NCBI GenBank assembly: GCA_028697455.1
Contig: JAQVEZ010000001.1
Location: 3,902-67,901 of the forward strand
Reading direction: 5' to 3'
DNA length: 64,000 nucleotides
Source: Minisyncoccota bacterium
GTDB lineage: Bacteria > Patescibacteriota > Minisyncoccia > Phycocordibacterales > UBA1006
Shown here: positions 2,493 through 49,926 of the stretch, piece by piece
Layout: every line of letters starts with the position of its first letter
Numbering within the stretch: the first letter of the stretch is position 1
The notes under the pieces: generated by a model
What the model was told of the DNA's origin: nothing
What the model saw: only the letters and a program-made list of their open reading frames with translations
Databases searched by the model: none
Program-made: the position numbers and the translations under genes

Positions 2493-4637
2493 ATGCAACG
2501 AGATTATCCTTTAGAAAAAGTAAGAAACTTTGGTATTGTTGCCCACGTAGATGCGGGAAAAACAACAACGACCGAAAGAATTCTTTACTATACGGGGCGC
2601 TCTCATAAGATGGGGGAGACCCATGATGGAAGTGCTGTAATGGACTGGATGGAGCAAGAACAAGAGCGAGGAATCACCATTACCTCTGCAGCAACAACTT
2701 GTTTTTGGACTCCTACTTATGATCCTACCAACCAACAATTAAAACATCGTTTTAATATTATTGACACACCAGGTCACGTGGACTTTACCGCAGAGGTTGA
2801 GCGGTCTCTTAAGGTACTTGATGGGGCGGTTGTTGTTTTTGATGGACAGGCTGGGGTTGAACCACAGTCTGAAACCGTTTGGCGACAGGCAGACAAATAT
2901 CACGTTCCACGAATGTGTTTTATCAACAAACTTGATAAGGTTGGAGCTGATTTTGACAAGGCCTTTCAGTCTATTATTAATAGACTTACACCACACGCTG
3001 TTATGGCTCAAATCCCTGTAGGATTTGAATCAAGTCTTTCTGGGGTTGTTGACCTTCTTACTATGAAAGCGTATCGCTTTGAGGGAAATATGGGGAATGA
3101 AATCATTGAGTTTGATATCCCAGAAGATCTCAAGGCACGAGCAGAAGAAAAAAGAGCTCTCTTCGTTGAAAAAATTATTGAAAACAACGAAGAGCTCATG
3201 AATGCATATTTTGAAGGAGAAGAAATTCCTTTGGATAAACTAAAAAGTGAACTCAGAAAACAAGTTATAGCCAATAATCTTGTTCCTGTTTTTGGAGGAT
3301 CTTCCTTCAAAAACATCGGAGTCCAGCTTGTTCTCAACGCCGTTGTGGATTATATGCCATCACCTGTTGATATTCCTCCAGTAAAAGGAAAGAATGCAAA
3401 AACAGGAGAAGAAGTTGAGAGAAAAGCTTCTGATAGTGAACCTTTTTCAGCTCTTGCCTTCAAACTCGCAGTGGATCCTTTCGTAGGGCAGATTACTTTC
3501 TTACGTATTTATTCTGGAGTTTTGGAAGCAGGTTCTTATGTTCTAAACACACGAACAGGGGATAAAGAGCGTGTTGGGCGATTACTTCAAATGCATGCTA
3601 ACGAGAGAGAAGAGGTAAAAGCTGCGTATGCTGGAGAAATTGTTGCAGCGGTTGGGCTTAAAGATATTAAAACCTCTGATACCTTGTGTGACCCAGCATC
3701 ACCTGTTATCCTCGATGAAATTATTTTCCCTGAACCAGTGGTTTCTCTCAAGATTGAACCAAAGACAAAAGCCGATCAGGAAAAAATGGGTATTGCTCTT
3801 TCTCGTCTTGCAGCAGAAGATCCAACCTTCAAGGTTTCAACTGATGCAGAAACTCTTGATACGGTGATTTCAGGGATGGGAGAACTTCACCTTGATATTA
3901 TTGTAGAAAGAATGAAGAGAGAGTTCGGTGTTGAGGCTAACGTCGGAGCTCCTCAGGTTGCATACCGAGAAACCATCCTTGGAAATGCAAGTGCAGAAGA
4001 GAAATACATCAAACAATCAGGAGGACGTGGTCAATATGGACACGTTAAGATTAATATCTCACCACTTCGCGAACTTGCAGAAGGGGAAACTCTTCCAAAG
4101 AATGTCAAACGAGACGAAGATGGATTTGAATTTGTTAATAATATCAAGGGAGGAGTTATTCCAAGTGAATATATTCCAGCTTGTGAAAAAGGATTCAAAG
4201 AAGGAATGCAACGCGGTGTTGTTGCAGGATATCCAATGGTAAATGTGTCTGTTGATTTGTACGATGGAACCTATCATGAAGTCGACTCCTCTGAAATTGC
4301 CTTTAAGATTGCTTCTTCAAAAGCTTTCCAAGATGCTGCTCGACAAGCGAATCCAGTTCTCCTCGAACCTATGATGAAGGTTGAGGTGGTTGTTCCAGAA
4401 GAACACATCGGAGACGTTACGGGAGATATTTCTTCAAAGAGAGGACTCGTTGAAGGAGTTGATGAAAAAGGAATGGTCCAAGCAGTTCGAGCAACTGTTC
4501 CGTTGTCTGAAATGTTTGGATATATTAATAACTTACGATCGATGACATCAGGGCGAGGACAGTTTACTATGGAGTTCTCACGTTATGATGTTGTTCCAAA
4601 AAACGTTGCAGATGAAATCATAAAAAAACGAAGCTAA
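2493..4637 (+). CDS. fusA: Elongation factor G
   Basis: G-domain [32 protein letters not shown] and NKLDK motifs. 714 aa. Confidence 0.9.
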
Positions 4638-4689: not shown

Positions 4690-4727
4690 TGCATCGGGGG
4701 GGGGGCAGGACGATATACTAGAAAGGT
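4690..4727 (+). promoter_or_regulatory. Putative promoter with a 10-G homopolymeric tract (approx 4696-4705) abutting a TATACT -10 element, 8 nt before the start codon
   Basis: Sequence gcatcGGGGGGGGGGcaggacgaTATACTagaaaggtATG. An almost identical arrangement is found at 26405-26447. Confidence 0.45.
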
Positions 4728-5279
4728 ATGAATAAATACGTAAAAATATTATTAGTAGCTTCATCCTTATTTTTTGGAGGAGCTGGAATATTATCAGCAC
4801 AGGAGATAGAGTGGTCAGAACCTTTTGCTGATCCATCAGGATATATTATTGAATGGGGCTCAGTAACTTACGGAAACAACACCTTCGTTGCGGTGGGGTA
4901 TAATTATAATACTTATAAAGGAATGATCATGACTTCATCTGACGGAACCACTTGGTCAGGACCTTTTGCTGATCCTTCAGAAAATAATATTTATTGGGGC
5001 TCAGTAACTTACGGAAACAACACCTTCGTTGCGGTGGGGTATAATGGTGGTACTGGTAAAGGAATGACCATGTATTCACTTAACAACGAGATAGTAGATT
5101 CTTCTGTTTCAAAACACTCAAGCATCTTCGGAACTCGCTTCTGCTCAGATACGGTAACTACCTTTTGTAGACCTAAGAGTGGATTTATCAACAACATTCC
5201 ATTGATTAGTATCTATACTGAACTCTTGGGGCTCTATCAACAACTCCTTTCTGCAATGCAAGGCGGAAACAGCTTATAA
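4728..5279 (+). CDS. Secreted BNR/Asp-box repeat protein (short paralog) with a conserved cysteine-containing C-terminal domain
   Basis: Signal peptide MNKYVKILLVASSLFFGGAGILSA. Two near-identical ~45-aa repeats (EPFADPSGYIIEWGSVTYGNNTFVAVGYN), one carrying the Asp-box SSDGTTW. The C-terminal ~50 aa (SSIFGTRFC...VTTFCRP..GF.NN.PL..IYTELLGLYQQLL) is shared with ORF 26448-27764. Confidence 0.6.
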   Translation: MNKYVKILLVASSLFFGGAGILSAQEIEWSEPFADPSGYIIEWGSVTYGNNTFVAVGYNYNTYKGMIMTSSDGTTWSGPFADPSENNIYWGSVTYGNNTFVAVGYNGGTGKGMTMYSLNNEIVDSSVSKHSSIFGTRFCSDTVTTFCRPKSGFINNIPLISIYTELLGLYQQLLSAMQGGNSL

Positions 5280-5295
5280 AAGCTGTTTTTTTATT
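5264..5295 (+). terminator. Rho-independent terminator hairpin aaacagctt-ataa-aagctgttt followed by a T-run
   Basis: Inverted repeat followed by TTTTTTT. The sequence is conserved with the terminator after the paralog at 27752-27782. Confidence 0.5.
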
Positions 5296-5304
5296 TGGCT
5301 TTTC

Positions 5305-5868
5305 TTGTATGATAGTGATATGCATTACATTATTGGTCTTGGAAATACAGGAGCATCTTATCAAAATACTCAACACAATATTGCGTGGATTATTTTTGAT
5401 TCCGAGAAGGCTCTTGAGTGGAAATCTGAAAAGCTTCTTCCTGGTGAGTTAGGAGTTTTTGAAGGTGACCTTTATATTAAGCCCTCAACTTTTGTTAATA
5501 ATTCAGGGAAAGTGCTTCCTTTTTTGAAAAAAAAAGGGCTTTCTCATTATGAAGATCTTGTGGTGGTGCACGATGATATTGATCTTCCTTTTGGAAAAAT
5601 CAAAATATCTTATGGGCATGGAGACGGAGGACATAACGGAATAAAGTCATTCATACAGCATGCCAAGACAAAGAATTTTATACGAATCAGGGTTGGAGTT
5701 GCTGTGGAAAAGAATGGGGTTTTTTATAAACCAAATGTTCTTGCACCTTTTGACAAAAAAGCACTAGAAGAAATATCAACGGTATTAGCCCCAAGGGTTT
5801 TTGCTATTATAAAATCTCTTAGAACAGAAGGCTTAGAAAAAACCATGAATATTTTTAACACAAAATAA
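5305..5868 (+). CDS. pth: Peptidyl-tRNA hydrolase
   Basis: N-terminal IIGLGNTGASYQNTQHNIAWII matches the Pth GLGNPG..Y..TRHN motif. The true start may be M at 5320. Confidence 0.8.
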   Translation: MYDSDMHYIIGLGNTGASYQNTQHNIAWIIFDSEKALEWKSEKLLPGELGVFEGDLYIKPSTFVNNSGKVLPFLKKKGLSHYEDLVVVHDDIDLPFGKIKISYGHGDGGHNGIKSFIQHAKTKNFIRIRVGVAVEKNGVFYKPNVLAPFDKKALEEISTVLAPRVFAIIKSLRTEGLEKTMNIFNTK

Positions 5869-17529: not shown

Positions 17530-17543
17530 TTTTTTAAAAAACA

Positions 17544-17577
17544 AAACTCGTCTTTGCAACGAGTTTTGTTTTTGATA
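17544..17577 (+). terminator. Rho-independent terminator ending the pilin-like gene array
   Basis: aaaactcgt-ctttgca-acgagtttt followed by GTTTTTG. Confidence 0.5.
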
Positions 17578-17585
17578 CTTTCTTT

Positions 17586-17670
17586 TGGTGCCCAAGAGAG
17601 GACTTGAACCTCCACGCGTTGCCGCACTGGTTCCTAAGACCAGCGTGTCTACCGATTCCACCACCTGGGC
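17586..17670 (-). tRNA. tRNA-Leu (anticodon TAG), long variable arm, CCA encoded
   Basis: Read on the minus strand: GCCCAGGTGGTGGAATCGGTAGACACGCTGGTCTTAGGAACCAGTGCGGCAACGCGTGGAGGTTCAAGTCCTCTCTTGGGCACCA. Cloverleaf with anticodon loop CTTAGGA and T-loop TTCAAGT. Confidence 0.85.
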
Positions 17671-17880
17671 AGGTGTGTTTACCCATCTGTATAAAAGAAT
17701 AGTTTTTTTATTTCAATACACATGCAGGCGTGTCTACCGCTTACTATTCTTTGCACCACCTGGGCAGGTGTGTTTACCCATCTGTATAAAAGAATAGTTT
17801 TTTTATTTCGATACACACGCAGGCGTGTCTACCGCTTACTATTCTTTGCACCACCTGGGCAGGTGTGTATCCCGAGCTGT
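17671..17880. repeat. Tandem direct repeat, 95-bp unit x ~2.2, starting at the 5' boundary of tRNA-Leu(TAG); each unit carries a tRNA 5'-fragment-like segment
   Basis: Unit aggtgtgtttacccatctgtataaaagaatagtttttttatttc[a/g]atacaca[t/c]gcaggcgtgtctaccgcttactattctttgcaccacctgggc at 17671-17765 and 17766-17860, plus a partial third copy. Two SNPs between units. Each unit contains ccacctgggcagg and gtgtctaccg, which match the tRNA acceptor/D-arm on the minus strand. Confidence 0.85.
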
Positions 17881-17944
17881 ACTTAACAAGATCTTTAGAT
17901 TCTGCAAGCCCCGGATTTATTACGTATTGATGATTCATTACGTG

Positions 17945-18017
17945 TCCGCTTGGAAGGATTCGAACCTTCGACCGTCTGGTTAAGAGCCAGCTGCTCTACC
18001 GACTGAGCTACAAGCGG
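17945..18017 (-). tRNA. tRNA-Lys (anticodon CTT)
   Basis: Minus strand: CCGCTTGTAGCTCAGTCGGTAGAGCAGCTGGCTCTTAACCAGACGGTCGAAGGTTCGAATCCTTCCAAGCGGA. Acceptor CCGCTTG/CAAGCGG. No CCA encoded. Confidence 0.85.
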
Positions 18018-25884: not shown

Positions 25885-25967
25885 GCGTCGGTGGCAGAGT
25901 GGTCAATTGCACGGGACTGTAAATCCTGCGACGTTAGTCTACGGGGGTTCAAATCCCTCCCGGCGCA
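25885..25967 (+). tRNA. tRNA-Tyr (anticodon GTA), long variable arm
   Basis: GCGTCGGTGGCAGAGTGGTCAATTGCACGGGACTGTAAATCCTGCGACGTTAGTCTACGGGGGTTCAAATCCCTCCCGGCGCA. No CCA encoded. Confidence 0.85.
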
Positions 25968-26228
25968 CTTATTTTAAAGAAAGACACGAAAGTGTTTTTC
26001 TTTTTTAATAAGAAGATAAGAGGGAGGATTTGAAAAAAGTCGCCTGCAAAGCCGGACGAAGTCCGTAGGCGACGGCGGGGTCGAGGCTCTGAGCTCAAAG
26101 CCGAATCTTTGATTCTAGGCGTGAGCCAGAGCGGTGACCAAATCCCTCCCGGCGCACTTATTTTAAAGAAAGACACGAAAGTGTTTTTCTTTTTTAATAA
26201 GAAGATAAGAGGGAGGATTTGAAAAAAT
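25951..26228. repeat. Direct repeat: 191-bp unit x ~1.45 beginning inside the tRNA-Tyr 3' end; the unit contains a terminator hairpin and a GC-rich structured segment
   Basis: caaatccctcccggcgcacttattttaaagaaagacacgaaagtgtttttcttttttaataagaagataagagggaggatttgaaaaaa occurs at ~25951-26038 and ~26142-26228. The ~103-bp segment between the copies is GC-rich and carries hairpins (gtcgcct...aggcgac; gaatc-ttt-gattc). Confidence 0.8.
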
Positions 26229-26404: not shown

Positions 26405-26447
26405 TTTACTTGACTCGGGGGGGGGGCGGAATATATAATAGAAAGGT
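26405..26447 (+). promoter_or_regulatory. Putative promoter with a 10-G homopolymeric tract (approx 26416-26425) abutting a TATATAAT -10 element
   Basis: gactcGGGGGGGGGGcggaaTATATAATagaaaggtATG. Paralogous to the element at 4690-4727. Confidence 0.45.
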
Positions 26448-27764
26448 ATGAATAAATATATTTTTACATCACTACTATCGTTATTTGTGATAGTAGGTTT
26501 TATAAGTTTTATTAATCCACACACAGCTTCTGCCCAACCTCTTGAATGGGAAGAGTTTGATCTCAGCCCCAATGAATATAATTCTATTGCCTATGGAAAT
26601 GGTGTGTATGTTGCTGTAGGAAGCGGAACCCCCATGTATTCCTCTGATGGGAAGAATTGGAATATGTCAATTCTTCCAAACGCAGCATCACTATCCTCAG
26701 TTGTTTATGGAGATGGGAAGTTTGTTGCGGTGGGGAGAACAGGTTCCCCACTTATGCAAAATATGAATCGGATTATTTACCTTTCTTCTGACGGGCTTTC
26801 CTGGGATATTGCTTCATCAATCCCCGATAAGTTAAATGCACAAAGCAATCTTCTCAGTATTTTTTATATGTATGATAATCTCAACGCTAAAGATTTATTT
26901 GTAGCCTTCGGGCAGGACTACTCTACAGGTGCTGGATCTACTAGCTTACCTTATATTGTTTATTCTTCTGATGGGGACGCCTGGCTCAGATCTACTCTGC
27001 CAATAGGTTCTGACGGAAGCCCGTCCGATGCAGTTGTAGGATATAACGAAAATGGAGAGCTTGTTCTTTTATCCTTTGTATATGGATATGGTATTGGTGC
27101 TCCTTCTTATTATATTATGTCTATTGACGGTGGAGCAACTTGGGTTTACCCGGACTCCCTTACAGGGCTTGATGATTTTCAGGGGCTAAGCATGAGTTAT
27201 CTCAACGGAAAATTTTTCTACGTGGGACATTCTTATGACGATGAAGAAGGTAAGGATCTGTTCTCTGTGAGATCCTCTATGAATGGACTTGATTGGGATA
27301 AAGGATCAATAGAGTTTCCTGAAGAATTCTTATCGGGTAGTAGGGAGACATCTGCTTATGGAGATAACACGTATCTTTTTTTCCTTTCCCCATCACTTGG
27401 TTACACACCCCCTCTCTATTCCCCCAACGGAGAAACCTGGGAATTCTTTACCCCAAGTTTTGATAAGAGTAGTTATGTATCTCCTATCCAATTAATTTAT
27501 GCAGAAGATTCATTTATGCTCCTTGGTCGAAATGAATCAGGAGGATATGTTATTGCTTTTCCCAAATCCTTGAATGATTCATCAGAAATACCTTCTTCAA
27601 AATCCTCAAGTATTTTCGGAACTCGATTCTGTACAGCAGGAGTTACTACCTTCTGTAGACCTCAGAATGGATTTACCAACAATAATCCATTAGTAAATAT
27701 TTACACTGAACTCTTGGGGCTTTATCAGCAACTTTTGAATACGATTCAAAATGAAAACAGCTAA
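26448..27764 (+). CDS. Secreted BNR/Asp-box repeat (beta-propeller-like) protein with a conserved C-terminal domain
   Basis: Signal peptide. Asp-box motifs SSDGKNW, SSDGLSW, SSDGDAW, SIDGGATW. Repeated YG.G.FVAVG blades. The C-terminal ~50 aa (SSIFGTRFCTAGVTTFCRPQNGFTNNNPLVNIYTELLGLYQQLL) is shared with 4728-5279. Confidence 0.65.
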   Translation: MNKYIFTSLLSLFVIVGFISFINPHTASAQPLEWEEFDLSPNEYNSIAYGNGVYVAVGSGTPMYSSDGKNWNMSILPNAASLSSVVYGDGKFVAVGRTGSPLMQNMNRIIYLSSDGLSWDIASSIPDKLNAQSNLLSIFYMYDNLNAKDLFVAFGQDYSTGAGSTSLPYIVYSSDGDAWLRSTLPIGSDGSPSDAVVGYNENGELVLLSFVYGYGIGAPSYYIMSIDGGATWVYPDSLTGLDDFQGLSMSYLNGKFFYVGHSYDDEEGKDLFSVRSSMNGLDWDKGSIEFPEEFLSGSRETSAYGDNTYLFFLSPSLGYTPPLYSPNGETWEFFTPSFDKSSYVSPIQLIYAEDSFMLLGRNESGGYVIAFPKSLNDSSEIPSSKSSSIFGTRFCTAGVTTFCRPQNGFTNNNPLVNIYTELLGLYQQLLNTIQNENS

Positions 27765-27782
27765 GTTTAGCTGTTTTTTGTT
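27752..27782 (+). terminator. Rho-independent terminator (acagct-aagttt-agctgt followed by a T-run)
   Basis: Conserved with the terminator after 4728-5279. Confidence 0.5.
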
Positions 27783-27801
27783 TTGTAAAAATATTTTGTC
27801 T

Positions 27802-33777: not shown

Positions 33778-34146
33778 TGTTAAAAGTATTTCTTGATAAC
33801 AGTCTACCGATTCATATATTTTTTGCAAATATAAAACCCTCCGGAGAGAGGGCTTTTCTTTGTTTGGGACCTACTTTGCTATCTTGAGATAGCTCTGCTC
33901 TTCGTTTTTAGAATTTTGTTTGTAGATTCTAAAAACAAGAAATTTCCTTGTTTCGAGGACTTTTGCCCCTGTTTTGAAACACCCCTTGCCAAGCTCTTCG
34001 AGGGTTGGAATTTTTTGTAAATTTTTCTTTACCCAACGAGTTTCTTTTTGGTCTTCTTTCTTTGCCCAAAAGAATAAAAAGCTTAGAGAACTTGATTTCA
34101 TAGTTTTTCTTTTCAATATAGAAACAAAAGAGAGGGAAGTCAAATT

Positions 34147-49702: not shown

Positions 49703-49753
49703 ATATTTTGATTATATGAGTTTTTCCAAAAAAAATCTAAGTATTTGTGACGG

Positions 49754-49825
49754 TGATCCCACGGGGAATCGAACCCCGATTGCCAGGATGAAAACCTGGT
49801 GTCCTAACCGTTAGACGATGGGACC
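49754..49825 (-). tRNA. tRNA-Glu (anticodon TTC)
   Basis: Minus strand: GGTCCCATCGTCTAACGGTTAGGACACCAGGTTTTCATCCTGGCAATCGGGGTTCGATTCCCCGTGGGATCA. Confidence 0.85.
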
Positions 49826-49899
49826 AAAATTTAATATTGGTAAAAATATTTTGCCTTTTGTTTTTTCAGGTTTTTGAAAAATCTGGTCTCTGCTCGCCT

Positions 49900-49926
49900 A
49901 TAAAAGGTTAGACGATAAGACCAAAA
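49900..49926 (-). pseudogene. Degenerate fragment resembling the 5' end of tRNA-Glu(TTC), ~75 bp upstream of the intact gene
   Basis: aaggttagacgataagaccaaaa here versus aaccgttagacgatgggaccaaaa at the genuine tRNA 5' end (plus-strand view). Confidence 0.35.

Follow-up and report, generated by a model that had tools for sequence, protein, structure and literature searches.

The window analysed here, a stretch of 64,000 nucleotides (nt) from contig JAQVEZ010000001.1 of a Minisyncoccota bacterium, carries a tandem repeat of a 95-bp unit directly at the 5' boundary of its tRNA-Leu(TAG) gene, and each unit opens with a remodelled copy of the first third of that gene. We interpret the repeat as a lineage-specific partial duplication, variable in copy number, that took in the leader and the 5' third of the tRNA gene, was remodelled into a hairpin and is probably transcribed through within the tRNA precursor, and we place the probability of this reading at roughly 0.55. 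The repeat is most likely a scar of recombination or repair and not a set of small genes that each have their own promoter and terminator. An independent function is not required to explain the units.

Structure of the repeat

Tandem Repeats Finder detects one strong array at 17659-17868, with a period of 95, 2.2 copies, 98% matches and a score of 406, and a separate repeat search recovers the same two 95-bp units next to tRNA-Leu(TAG). Both agree with an earlier note on this DNA, which had described 2.2 tandem copies at this boundary; the range that it gave for the repeat, 17586-17880, is too generous in that it includes the real tRNA itself. Read on the tRNA strand, tRNA-Lys is followed by a spacer of 75 nt, then by ACACACCT and units A and B, and finally by the real tRNA-Leu(TAG). 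Each unit is laid out as GCCCAGGTGGTG / CAAAGAATAGTAAG / CGGTAGACACGC / CTGCGTGTGTATCGAAATAAAAAAACTATTCTTTTATACAGATGGGTAAACACACCT and ends in ...TATACAGATGGGTAAACACACCT, and the two units differ at two positions only (43, G/A; 51, C/T). The opening GCCCAGGTGGTG is exactly nt 1-12 of tRNA-Leu(TAG) and CGGTAGACACGC is exactly nt 17-28, with the 14-nt CAAAGAATAGTAAG standing in for the 4-nt D-loop piece GAAT between them. The internal replacement that the earlier note had put at 15 nt is thus real, but its size is 14 nt for 4 (or 15 for 5).

The segments repeated from the native locus are tRNA nt 1-12 and nt 17-28 together with 8 nt of the 5' leader. Each unit ends in 8-20 nt that are also present in the leader ahead of unit A, and ACACACCT (17861-17868) in that leader repeats the unit end exactly. 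Beyond this 8-mer the resemblance to the leader extends for about 28 nt and is weaker (76% over 51 nt in the repeat search), the roughly 28 nt upstream of ACACACCT being about 57% alike in an ungapped comparison (TACAG..GGG..); in a local-alignment shuffle test the likeness between the unit tail and the native leader past the last 8 nt is not significant. A 20-nt direct repeat, ACACACCTGCCCAGGTGGTG, stands at every unit junction. The unit-to-unit junction, ...GGGTAAACACACCT joined to GCCCAGGTGGTGCAAAG, has only 20 nt in common with the other junctions, and GGGTAAACACACCTGCCCAGGTGGTGCAAAG is diagnostic of a junction between at least two units.

Each unit also contains a perfect 10-nt inverted repeat, AAAGAATAGT ... 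ACTATTCTTT (arms X and X'), for which a shuffle test gives a chance probability of p=0.0005. The D-loop replacement holds the original GAAT inside AAA-GAAT-AGT, and the partner arm holds ATTC. More broadly, the pseudo-tRNA part pairs with its own imperfect inverted copy through X/X', an inner stem and GCCCA/TGGGT, so that the unit is one long hairpin.

ARAGORN and Rfam recognise a cloverleaf only in the real tRNA, and the units have no match to the tRNA clan even at a permissive E-value. Rfam searches at gathering and permissive thresholds return tRNAs only, the weak matches being noise. We rejected the possibility that a unit is a complete decayed tRNA gene (85 nt plus 10), as past nt 28 only the 7-mer GCGTGGA matches and the 3' end of the unit is closer to the leader than to the acceptor end. 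An open reading frame (ORF) antisense to the tRNA and the repeats (17585-17797, plus strand, 70 aa) was treated as spurious, and a further occurrence of the 12-mer GAATCGGTAGAC at 33802-33813, which has no adjoining tRNA, was judged a chance match.

As a separate observation, the leader and the first bases of tRNA-Leu(TAG) form a palindrome, CACCTG-CC-CAGGTG (17661-17674, minus strand), centred on tRNA nt 2-3, and the same palindrome occurs at the start of each unit. At the 5' boundary of the tRNA it could favour template switching or be a recognition site for a protein.

Copy number in related populations

Four related populations (L083, L110, L111 and L112), which come from four other sequencing runs and fall in the same 90% RbfA cluster as the window, carry one unit each in the same place. 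Their units are 11-14% diverged from that of the window, and each of their contigs passes without branching from unique sequence across the unit to the real tRNA. Two more distant groups lack the unit: in Ca. Taylorbacteria L003 the tRNA order is kept and the spacer between tRNA-Lys and tRNA-Leu(TAG) is 45 nt, and in L086-L090 (RbfA 61%), where synteny is likewise retained, this spacer is 50 nt. The order Cys-Leu(TAA)-Lys-Leu(TAG) recurs in both L003 and L083. The unit is heritable, lineage-specific and variable in number, one versus two between close relatives, and the comparison of repeat number that the earlier note had proposed accordingly returns a variable repeat. Head-to-tail units that are 98% alike, 20-nt direct repeats at the junctions and a copy number that differs among relatives are the features of a minisatellite.

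These sequences show that the unit arose after the split from the relatives with a 45-50 nt spacer, that the common ancestor of the five sampled populations already had a single copy, and that one further duplication followed in the genome of the window, where the copies differ at only two sites. The number of units also offers a ready marker for telling closely related populations of Paceibacteria apart.

The second copy is known from this assembly alone, and the Logan contigs of its source run end inside the flanking tRNA-Leu genes (L001/L116 and L002 stop in tRNA-Leu(TAA) and tRNA-Leu(TAG)) without bridging the region. Misassembly, in which for instance two strain variants of one unit were placed in tandem, would fit these contig ends, the single copy of the four related assemblies and the mere two differences between units A and B, which is what strain variants would show. 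We nevertheless regard an artefact as extremely improbable. Because four assemblies from other samples contain one copy, the unit itself is no artefact, and on sequence grounds the junction GGGTAAACACACCT/GCCCAGGTGGTGCAAAG should be impossible for a de Bruijn assembler at k>20 unless it is present in the reads. Since this junction has so little in common with the others, an assembler is unlikely to have invented the second copy.

A possible route to the units

The first duplication may have begun with a break or a replication slip inside the tRNA gene near nt 28, followed by repair on a misaligned sister copy, which would leave a junction between tRNA nt 28 and the leader. The change from GAAT to CAAAGAATAGTAAG could have been templated from the downstream complementary segment ATTC by quasi-palindrome template switching, a switch that would extend a 4-nt complementarity to 10 nt in a single event. 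The unit would then be transcribed within the precursor from upstream, with RNase P still cutting at the real G1 and the decoy 5' half made harmless by being locked in its own hairpin. The 20-nt direct repeat would lead to minisatellite behaviour, with copies gained or lost by slippage or unequal exchange, and the step from one copy to two would require nothing else. These steps are read from the product.

Both quasi-palindrome template-switch mutation and slipped-strand tandem duplication are established forms of bacterial mutagenesis. As in the former, a multi-base replacement perfects an inverted repeat (GAAT/ATTC becoming AAAGAATAGT/ACTATTCTTT), and as in the latter the duplication in the window is bounded by short direct repeats; unlike the established cases, the events in the window are deduced from the product alone. 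Tandem repeats of pseudo-tRNAs are also known from organelle genomes, where they follow from duplication and random loss. There, too, degenerate partial tRNA copies stand beside a functional gene and their number varies between close lineages, whereas the window lies on a bacterial chromosome and its tRNA blocks are perfectly identical to the gene. The locus is in itself a small natural record of an essential tRNA gene that was partly duplicated, neutralised and re-amplified.

Conservation, folding and transcription signals

A functional cis element of the tRNA operon, either an added promoter (two after the duplication) or a structured leader for processing or termination, would be an alternative reason for the presence of the unit. 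In unit B, TTGAAA (17711-17716) lies 17 nt upstream of TATACA, which in turn lies 17 nt before G1 of the real tRNA. The corresponding hexamer of unit A is TCGAAA, and the substitution between the units turns it into TTGAAA. The arrangement TTGAAA-17-TATACA matches the consensus at 9 of 12 positions and lacks the conserved final T, promoter rules for the Candidate Phyla Radiation (CPR) not being established. A consensus scan of the units finds no promoter-like site, and no terminator-like site on the tRNA strand. TATACA and the T-run that follows it occur in this genome only: the four relatives read ...CTTAGGGTACAG / CTTAAGGTACAG, with GGTACA as the counterpart of TATACA and no T-run. A terminator reading places the end of the RNA after ACUAUUCUUUU and its start a few nt past TATACA, but the features of an intrinsic terminator are lacking, as the stem is AU-rich, 39 nt are enclosed and the T-run is missing in the relatives.

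These results do not favour the promoter that the earlier note had assigned to each unit, nor the terminator that it had proposed for each, and the tRNA-leader-like RNAs of about 60 nt that it expected from the units, if transcribed, are poorly supported. Because both TATACA and the T-run are confined to this genome, service as a promoter or terminator is not the reason the unit exists, and such a role would leave the retention of the unit in other populations unexplained. It would be at most a recent by-product in this lineage.

On the tRNA strand all five versions of the unit are predicted to form the same long hairpin, with a closing stem GCCCA/UGGGU, a 9-10 bp stem X/X' (AAAGAAUAGU/ACUAUUCUUU) and an inner stem that ends in CACG-CCUG-CGUG. 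The predicted fold of unit A reaches -30.3 kcal/mol (z -4.6) and that of unit B -22.8 kcal/mol (z -1.9), a substitution in unit B weakening the inner stem, and the units of the four relatives have z of about -2. The better-than-shuffled hairpin, its strand specificity, the retention of the unit in five populations and the G-U compatibility of both stem changes in the L110 clade could all be accommodated by a cis element. The pattern of substitution, however, does not bear the mark of selection on pairing. Among 26 pairs in five sequences, 7 of the 52 paired columns vary, 4 of them giving G-U only and 3 breaking the pair, and double compensatory changes number zero, a result of low power; the pair counts come from a hand-gapped alignment, the MAFFT output being ungapped with its 3' arm shifted. 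A mixture of G-U-compatible and disruptive changes is what transitions in an inherited hairpin would produce without selection. The self-pairing that the earlier note described is thus predicted in every version, but compensatory changes are lacking. Both the evidence for a selected RNA structure and the power of the test appear weak.

Between the window and L110 a hand count gives 11 differences in the 95-nt unit versus 6 in 84 aligned positions of the adjacent spacer, from which it follows that the unit is not conserved above background; it evolves at least as fast as the spacer. With no Rfam match to add to this, we consider a cis element of the operon distinctly improbable as the explanation of the repeat.

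Copies of tRNA ends at other genes

The first and last 16 nt of each tRNA were compared with its own 500-nt flanks, allowing up to 2 mismatches. Three of the seven tRNAs of the window, Leu(TAG), Tyr and Glu(TTC), have a copy of one of their ends nearby, versus none of 49 tRNAs outside it (20 from diverse bacteria and 29 from CPR relatives). This contrast points to a general propensity of the genome and not to a dedicated element, and it upholds the suggestion of the earlier note that such copies are a genome-wide habit. The duplications that the note had seen at tRNA-Tyr and tRNA-Glu are found at tRNA-Tyr and tRNA-Glu(TTC), but the one at tRNA-Glu(CTC) was not confirmed.

At tRNA-Tyr (25885-25968) the 3' 19 nt and the 70 nt downstream (from 25950) are repeated exactly at 26139-26227, an 89-nt repeat of 100% identity that includes the terminator hairpin of the tRNA and AGAGGGAGGATTTG, which is complementary to the 3' end of the tRNA. 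The 100-nt spacer between the copies (26039-26138) has 62% G+C versus 37.5% in the genome and, with the following 20 nt included, folds stably at -56 kcal/mol (z -3.5). It has no Rfam match, and a 20-mer of it matches only unrelated GC-rich coding DNA among viral contigs. The spacer has the look of a structured small RNA, or of a mini-insert for which the tRNA end and terminator have been reused. At tRNA-Glu(TTC) (49752-49825) a copy of the 5' end, GGTCTTATCGTCTAAC (14 of 16 positions), lies 97 nt upstream (49885-49922 of the window, minus strand). Directly behind this copy come an imperfect reverse complement of it and AGATTTTTC, so that a terminator-like hairpin is formed from the pseudo 5' tRNA end (z -4.4). 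At all three affected tRNAs, then, a piece derived from the tRNA pairs with an inverted copy nearby (z -4.4 for Glu, -6.3 for the Tyr repeat). Among the relatives, L105 (RbfA 66% identical) carries at 3340-3420 two degenerate fragments of the 3' end of tRNA-Leu(TAA), CAATTCCCGCCCTCTAGCAC and CCCTCGGCACAAAGAAAA, 190-230 nt downstream of that tRNA; the part with tRNA-Lys and tRNA-Leu(TAG) is missing at this locus. Copies of tRNA ends seem to be common in this CPR group.

Partial repeats of tRNA genes (attL/attR) are found at the integration sites of integrative elements, where the 3' part of the tRNA, starting in the anticodon loop or T loop, is repeated and DNA of the element with its integrase gene lies between or beside the copies. 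Williams reportedly described, in 2002, a sublocation preference of integrases. The repeat could by analogy consist of attL/attR-type scars left by repeated integration and excision of an integrase-carrying element. As at such sites, a tRNA fragment lies in direct repeat beside the intact gene, which is the classical signature, and several tRNAs of one genome are affected, with an orthodox 3'-end repeat at tRNA-Tyr in the window and 3' fragments of tRNA-Leu(TAA) in L105. Unlike at att sites, the window copies the 5' third and not the 3' part, and does so in 95-bp head-to-tail units that hold no cargo, with only 57 nt between the copies. The copy also has an internal replacement, unexpected for an att site, and folds back on itself. 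The surroundings of this tRNA and of the other affected ones in the window contain no gene of an integrase, a transposase, a nuclease or another mobile element. The att reading further predicts a phage or plasmid of this lineage with an attP that contains ACACACCTGCCCAGGTGGTGCAAAGAATAG..., and neither the unit nor its gapped pattern has a match in 2.9 million viral contigs. We therefore hold an integrase origin to be very improbable. The recombination scar that the earlier note had offered as its own alternative fits the lineage-specific unit and its change from one copy to two, but a classical integrase scar it is not.

A palindrome and GIY-YIG class at tRNA genes of other genomes

A search of metagenome contigs for GCCCAGGTGGTG N9-30 GTAGACACGC, a pattern taken from the window unit, exposed a class of elements in Bacteroidota, a CPR metagenome-assembled genome (MAG) and viral contigs. 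The pattern matches 13 metagenome contigs, and each match is the 5' part of a tRNA-Leu with an insert in the D loop, a feature that the pattern itself demands and that is therefore partly ascertainment. An intact tRNA-Leu lies downstream on the same strand in most of the 13 loci, two short contigs ending earlier. The insert of the class is a near-perfect palindrome, either TCCCGATAGCTATCGGGA-like or CCTGCCTGCCGGCAGGCAGG.

Two versions of the arrangement are seen. L092, L093, L094/L098, L095/L100 and L097 have tandem units of 60-138 nt that lack an ORF and in some cases include a duplicated leader (60 nt in L095/L100, 104 nt in L094/L098, and 138 nt in three copies in L093). In L096 and L101-L104 the pseudo half runs through the anticodon arm and is followed by a GIY-YIG protein of 77-89 aa (PF01541, E=2e-16), L096 having at least four complete ORF-bearing units of 412-417 nt in tandem. 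The GIY-YIG ORF is placed between the intact tRNA-Leu(GAG) and its pseudo 5' half, whose D arm carries the 20-nt perfect palindrome CCTGCCTGCCGGCAGGCAGG. The ORF-bearing arrangement is also present, with an identical 20-nt palindrome, in the isolate Chryseotalea sanaruensis (L118) and in a CPR MAG of Ca. Magasanikbacteria (L117), and the viral contig L152 has the same arrangement at a different tRNA, with an ORF that is 47% identical (E=4e-24). The ribosome-binding site of the ORF is apparently built from anticodon-stem sequence.

When the palindrome is removed from the full-length copy in L096, ARAGORN recognises a tRNA-Leu(GAG), and its removal from L145 yields a tRNA-Met(CAT). As its deletion restores these tRNAs, the palindrome has been inserted cleanly, in loops where additional bases are tolerated. 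Clean insertion sites are seen in L096 (reverse strand, 5435-5540), L102 (5650-5700), L122/L145 and L152. The palindrome occupies the D loop of tRNA-Leu(GAG) and the variable loop of tRNA-Met(CAT) in a viral contig, and a tRNA-Leu 3' fragment has it in the T loop. Other occurrences in viral contigs lie between genes, sometimes with flanking direct repeats of 7-14 nt (L123, L129 and L139). From its sequence contexts, the 20-nt palindrome appears to behave like a tiny mobile hairpin. The class as a whole (pseudo 5' tRNA halves with a D-arm palindrome, with or without a GIY-YIG ORF, upstream of intact tRNAs) is apparently undescribed, and neither pseudo-5'-tRNA repeats in CPR nor GIY-YIG/palindrome elements at tRNA-Leu turned up in searches of the literature.

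The unit of the window could accordingly be the decayed, ORF-less footprint of a selfish nuclease element of this class that targets tRNA genes, its units having been created and amplified through recurrent cuts in the intact copy that were repaired on the misaligned pseudo copy. The likeness to the class is extensive: the pseudo 5' part stands upstream of the intact tRNA-Leu on the same strand with its D arm interrupted, tRNA nt 1-12 and GGTAGACACGC are kept, a longer insert takes the place of the alpha region of the D loop, a second copy of the leader is present and the units are in tandem. ORF-less and PF01541-bearing versions exist side by side, the latter even in an isolate and in a CPR MAG, and the nested long hairpin of the window unit is also the fold of the L092 unit. 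X/X' of the window (AAAGAATAG/CTATTCTTT) has a central ATAG/CTAT core in common with the palindrome TCCCGATAG/CTATCGGGA. In phage T6, the GIY-YIG nuclease SegB drives the tandem amplification of a unit of tRNA and segB (PMC13096335). As with SegB in phages T4 and T6 (PMC13096335; PMC2330249), the window has a junction at the 5' end of a tRNA, microhomology and an unstable copy number. The T6 unit, in contrast, is 718 bp long and contains a whole tRNA and the nuclease gene, whereas no nuclease gene occurs in the window or, among the relatives, at this locus.

Several features of the window nonetheless separate it from the class. Its insert, CAAAGAATAGTAAG, is locally asymmetric and has a distal segment as its only pairing partner, and the anticodon of the tRNA is TAG, versus mostly GAG in the class. 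Neither CCTGCCTGCCGGCAGGCAGG nor TCCCGATAGCTATCGGGA occurs in the window with up to 3 mismatches, and a tblastn search of two GIY-YIG family members against the window finds nothing better than E=8.6, which leaves no sign of a coding remnant. All five related populations lack the ORF, and the other affected tRNAs of the window are Tyr, at its 3' end, and Glu, and not Leu. With neither palindrome nor ORF, the window unit is not filed as a member of the class, and we rate a nuclease footprint as possible but unlikely, though it is the main rival to our reading.

A broader form of this idea, to which we also give only limited credence, takes the window unit as the ORF-less CPR end-member of widespread, undescribed selfish elements that colonise essential tRNA genes without killing. 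Such an element would carry a replacement for the part of the tRNA that it displaces, the displaced 5' half would be disabled by a hairpin in a structurally tolerant loop, and the element would ride on the promoter of the tRNA, with breaks made by a nuclease leading to its tandem amplification. If this were true, the same process would also have left the copies of tRNA ends seen at Tyr and Glu(TTC), ordinary-looking tRNA scars would be linked to an active, unstudied invasion of essential genes, and tRNA genes would be a main arena of intragenomic conflict in small CPR genomes.

Some observations weigh against a simple duplication scar, our preferred reading. The duplication of the leader is only partly supported, as the likeness of tail and leader is significant for the last ~8-20 nt only, and units of parallel structure in other genomes have a nuclease gene linked to them. 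In the blocks taken from the tRNA, 24 of 24 positions still match the real gene although the rest of the unit has diverged strongly from any source that can be recognised, which suggests that these blocks are constrained or are refreshed from the real gene, for neutral decay would have hit them. The unit has also been kept in all five sampled populations despite 20-nt flanking direct repeats that should delete it. Finally, the stem substitutions of the L110 clade are both G-U compatible on the tRNA strand only, and the antisense strand folds worse than shuffled sequences (L111, z +1.6), which together hint that there may be a constraint at the RNA level.

Genomic setting

Positions of the features in and around the repeat are collected in Table 1. 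The window has 37.5% G+C and belongs to a small genome of the CPR/Patescibacteria. The tRNA genes form a cluster in the order Cys, Leu(TAA), Lys(CTT) and Leu(TAG), the last of which ends it, and the neighbours include a short IF-2, RbfA, several small membrane proteins that resemble type IV secretion system (T4SS) pilins and other housekeeping genes. RbfA of the window is identical to MDD3693802.1, from a "Candidatus Pacebacteria/Paceibacterota" MAG, and the closest species representative among the matches listed is the Ca. Taylorbacteria MAG L003, whose IF-2 is 48% identical.

Table 1. Features in and around the tRNA-Leu(TAG) repeat, in window coordinates.
Feature	Position	Strand	Basis or remark
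tRNA-Leu(TAG), intact, 85 nt, encoded CCA	17586-17670	-	ARAGORN; Rfam tRNA, 55.9 bits
Unit B, proximal, 95 nt; leader copy abuts G1 of real tRNA	17671-17765	-	Tandem Repeats Finder, repeat search, sequence
Unit A, distal, 95 nt	17766-17860	-	Tandem Repeats Finder, repeat search, sequence
Start of a third, old, diverged leader copy	17861-17896	-	Repeat search
75-nt spacer, tRNA-Lys to repeat	17869-17943	-	~89-93% identity in sibling populations
tRNA-Lys(CTT)	17944-18017	-	Own promoter-like site TTGCGA-16-TATACT
Arm X, AAAGAATAGT, within D-loop replacement	Unit B 17743-17752; unit A 17838-17847	-	Inverted-repeat search
Arm X', ACTATTCTTT	Unit B 17694-17703; unit A 17789-17798	-	Inverted-repeat search, sequence
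TATACA, -10-like hexamer	Unit B 17688-17693; unit A 17783-17788	-	Sequence
Strong 15-bp hairpin, T/A runs on both sides	17537-17573	.	Terminator common to tRNA-Leu(TAG) and convergent pilin-like gene

The tRNA cluster is a rearrangement hot spot in this CPR group. In L086-L090 the pair of tRNA-Lys and tRNA-Leu(TAG) is inverted relative to tRNA-Cys and flanked by two ORFs, 190 and 230 aa long, that lack a Pfam match; tRNA-Leu(TAA) is displaced by 1 kb.

Elsewhere in the window, a run of 9-10 G followed by ATATA..TAGAAAGGTATGAATAAATA occurs at 4697-4738 and at 26417-26458 (88% identity), ahead of two paralogous genes (4812-5297 and 26696-27785). The paralogues share internal repeats, namely a 141-nt tandem repeat at 4812-5072 and 190 nt at 76%, and one of the two begins directly after the tRNA-Tyr repeat.

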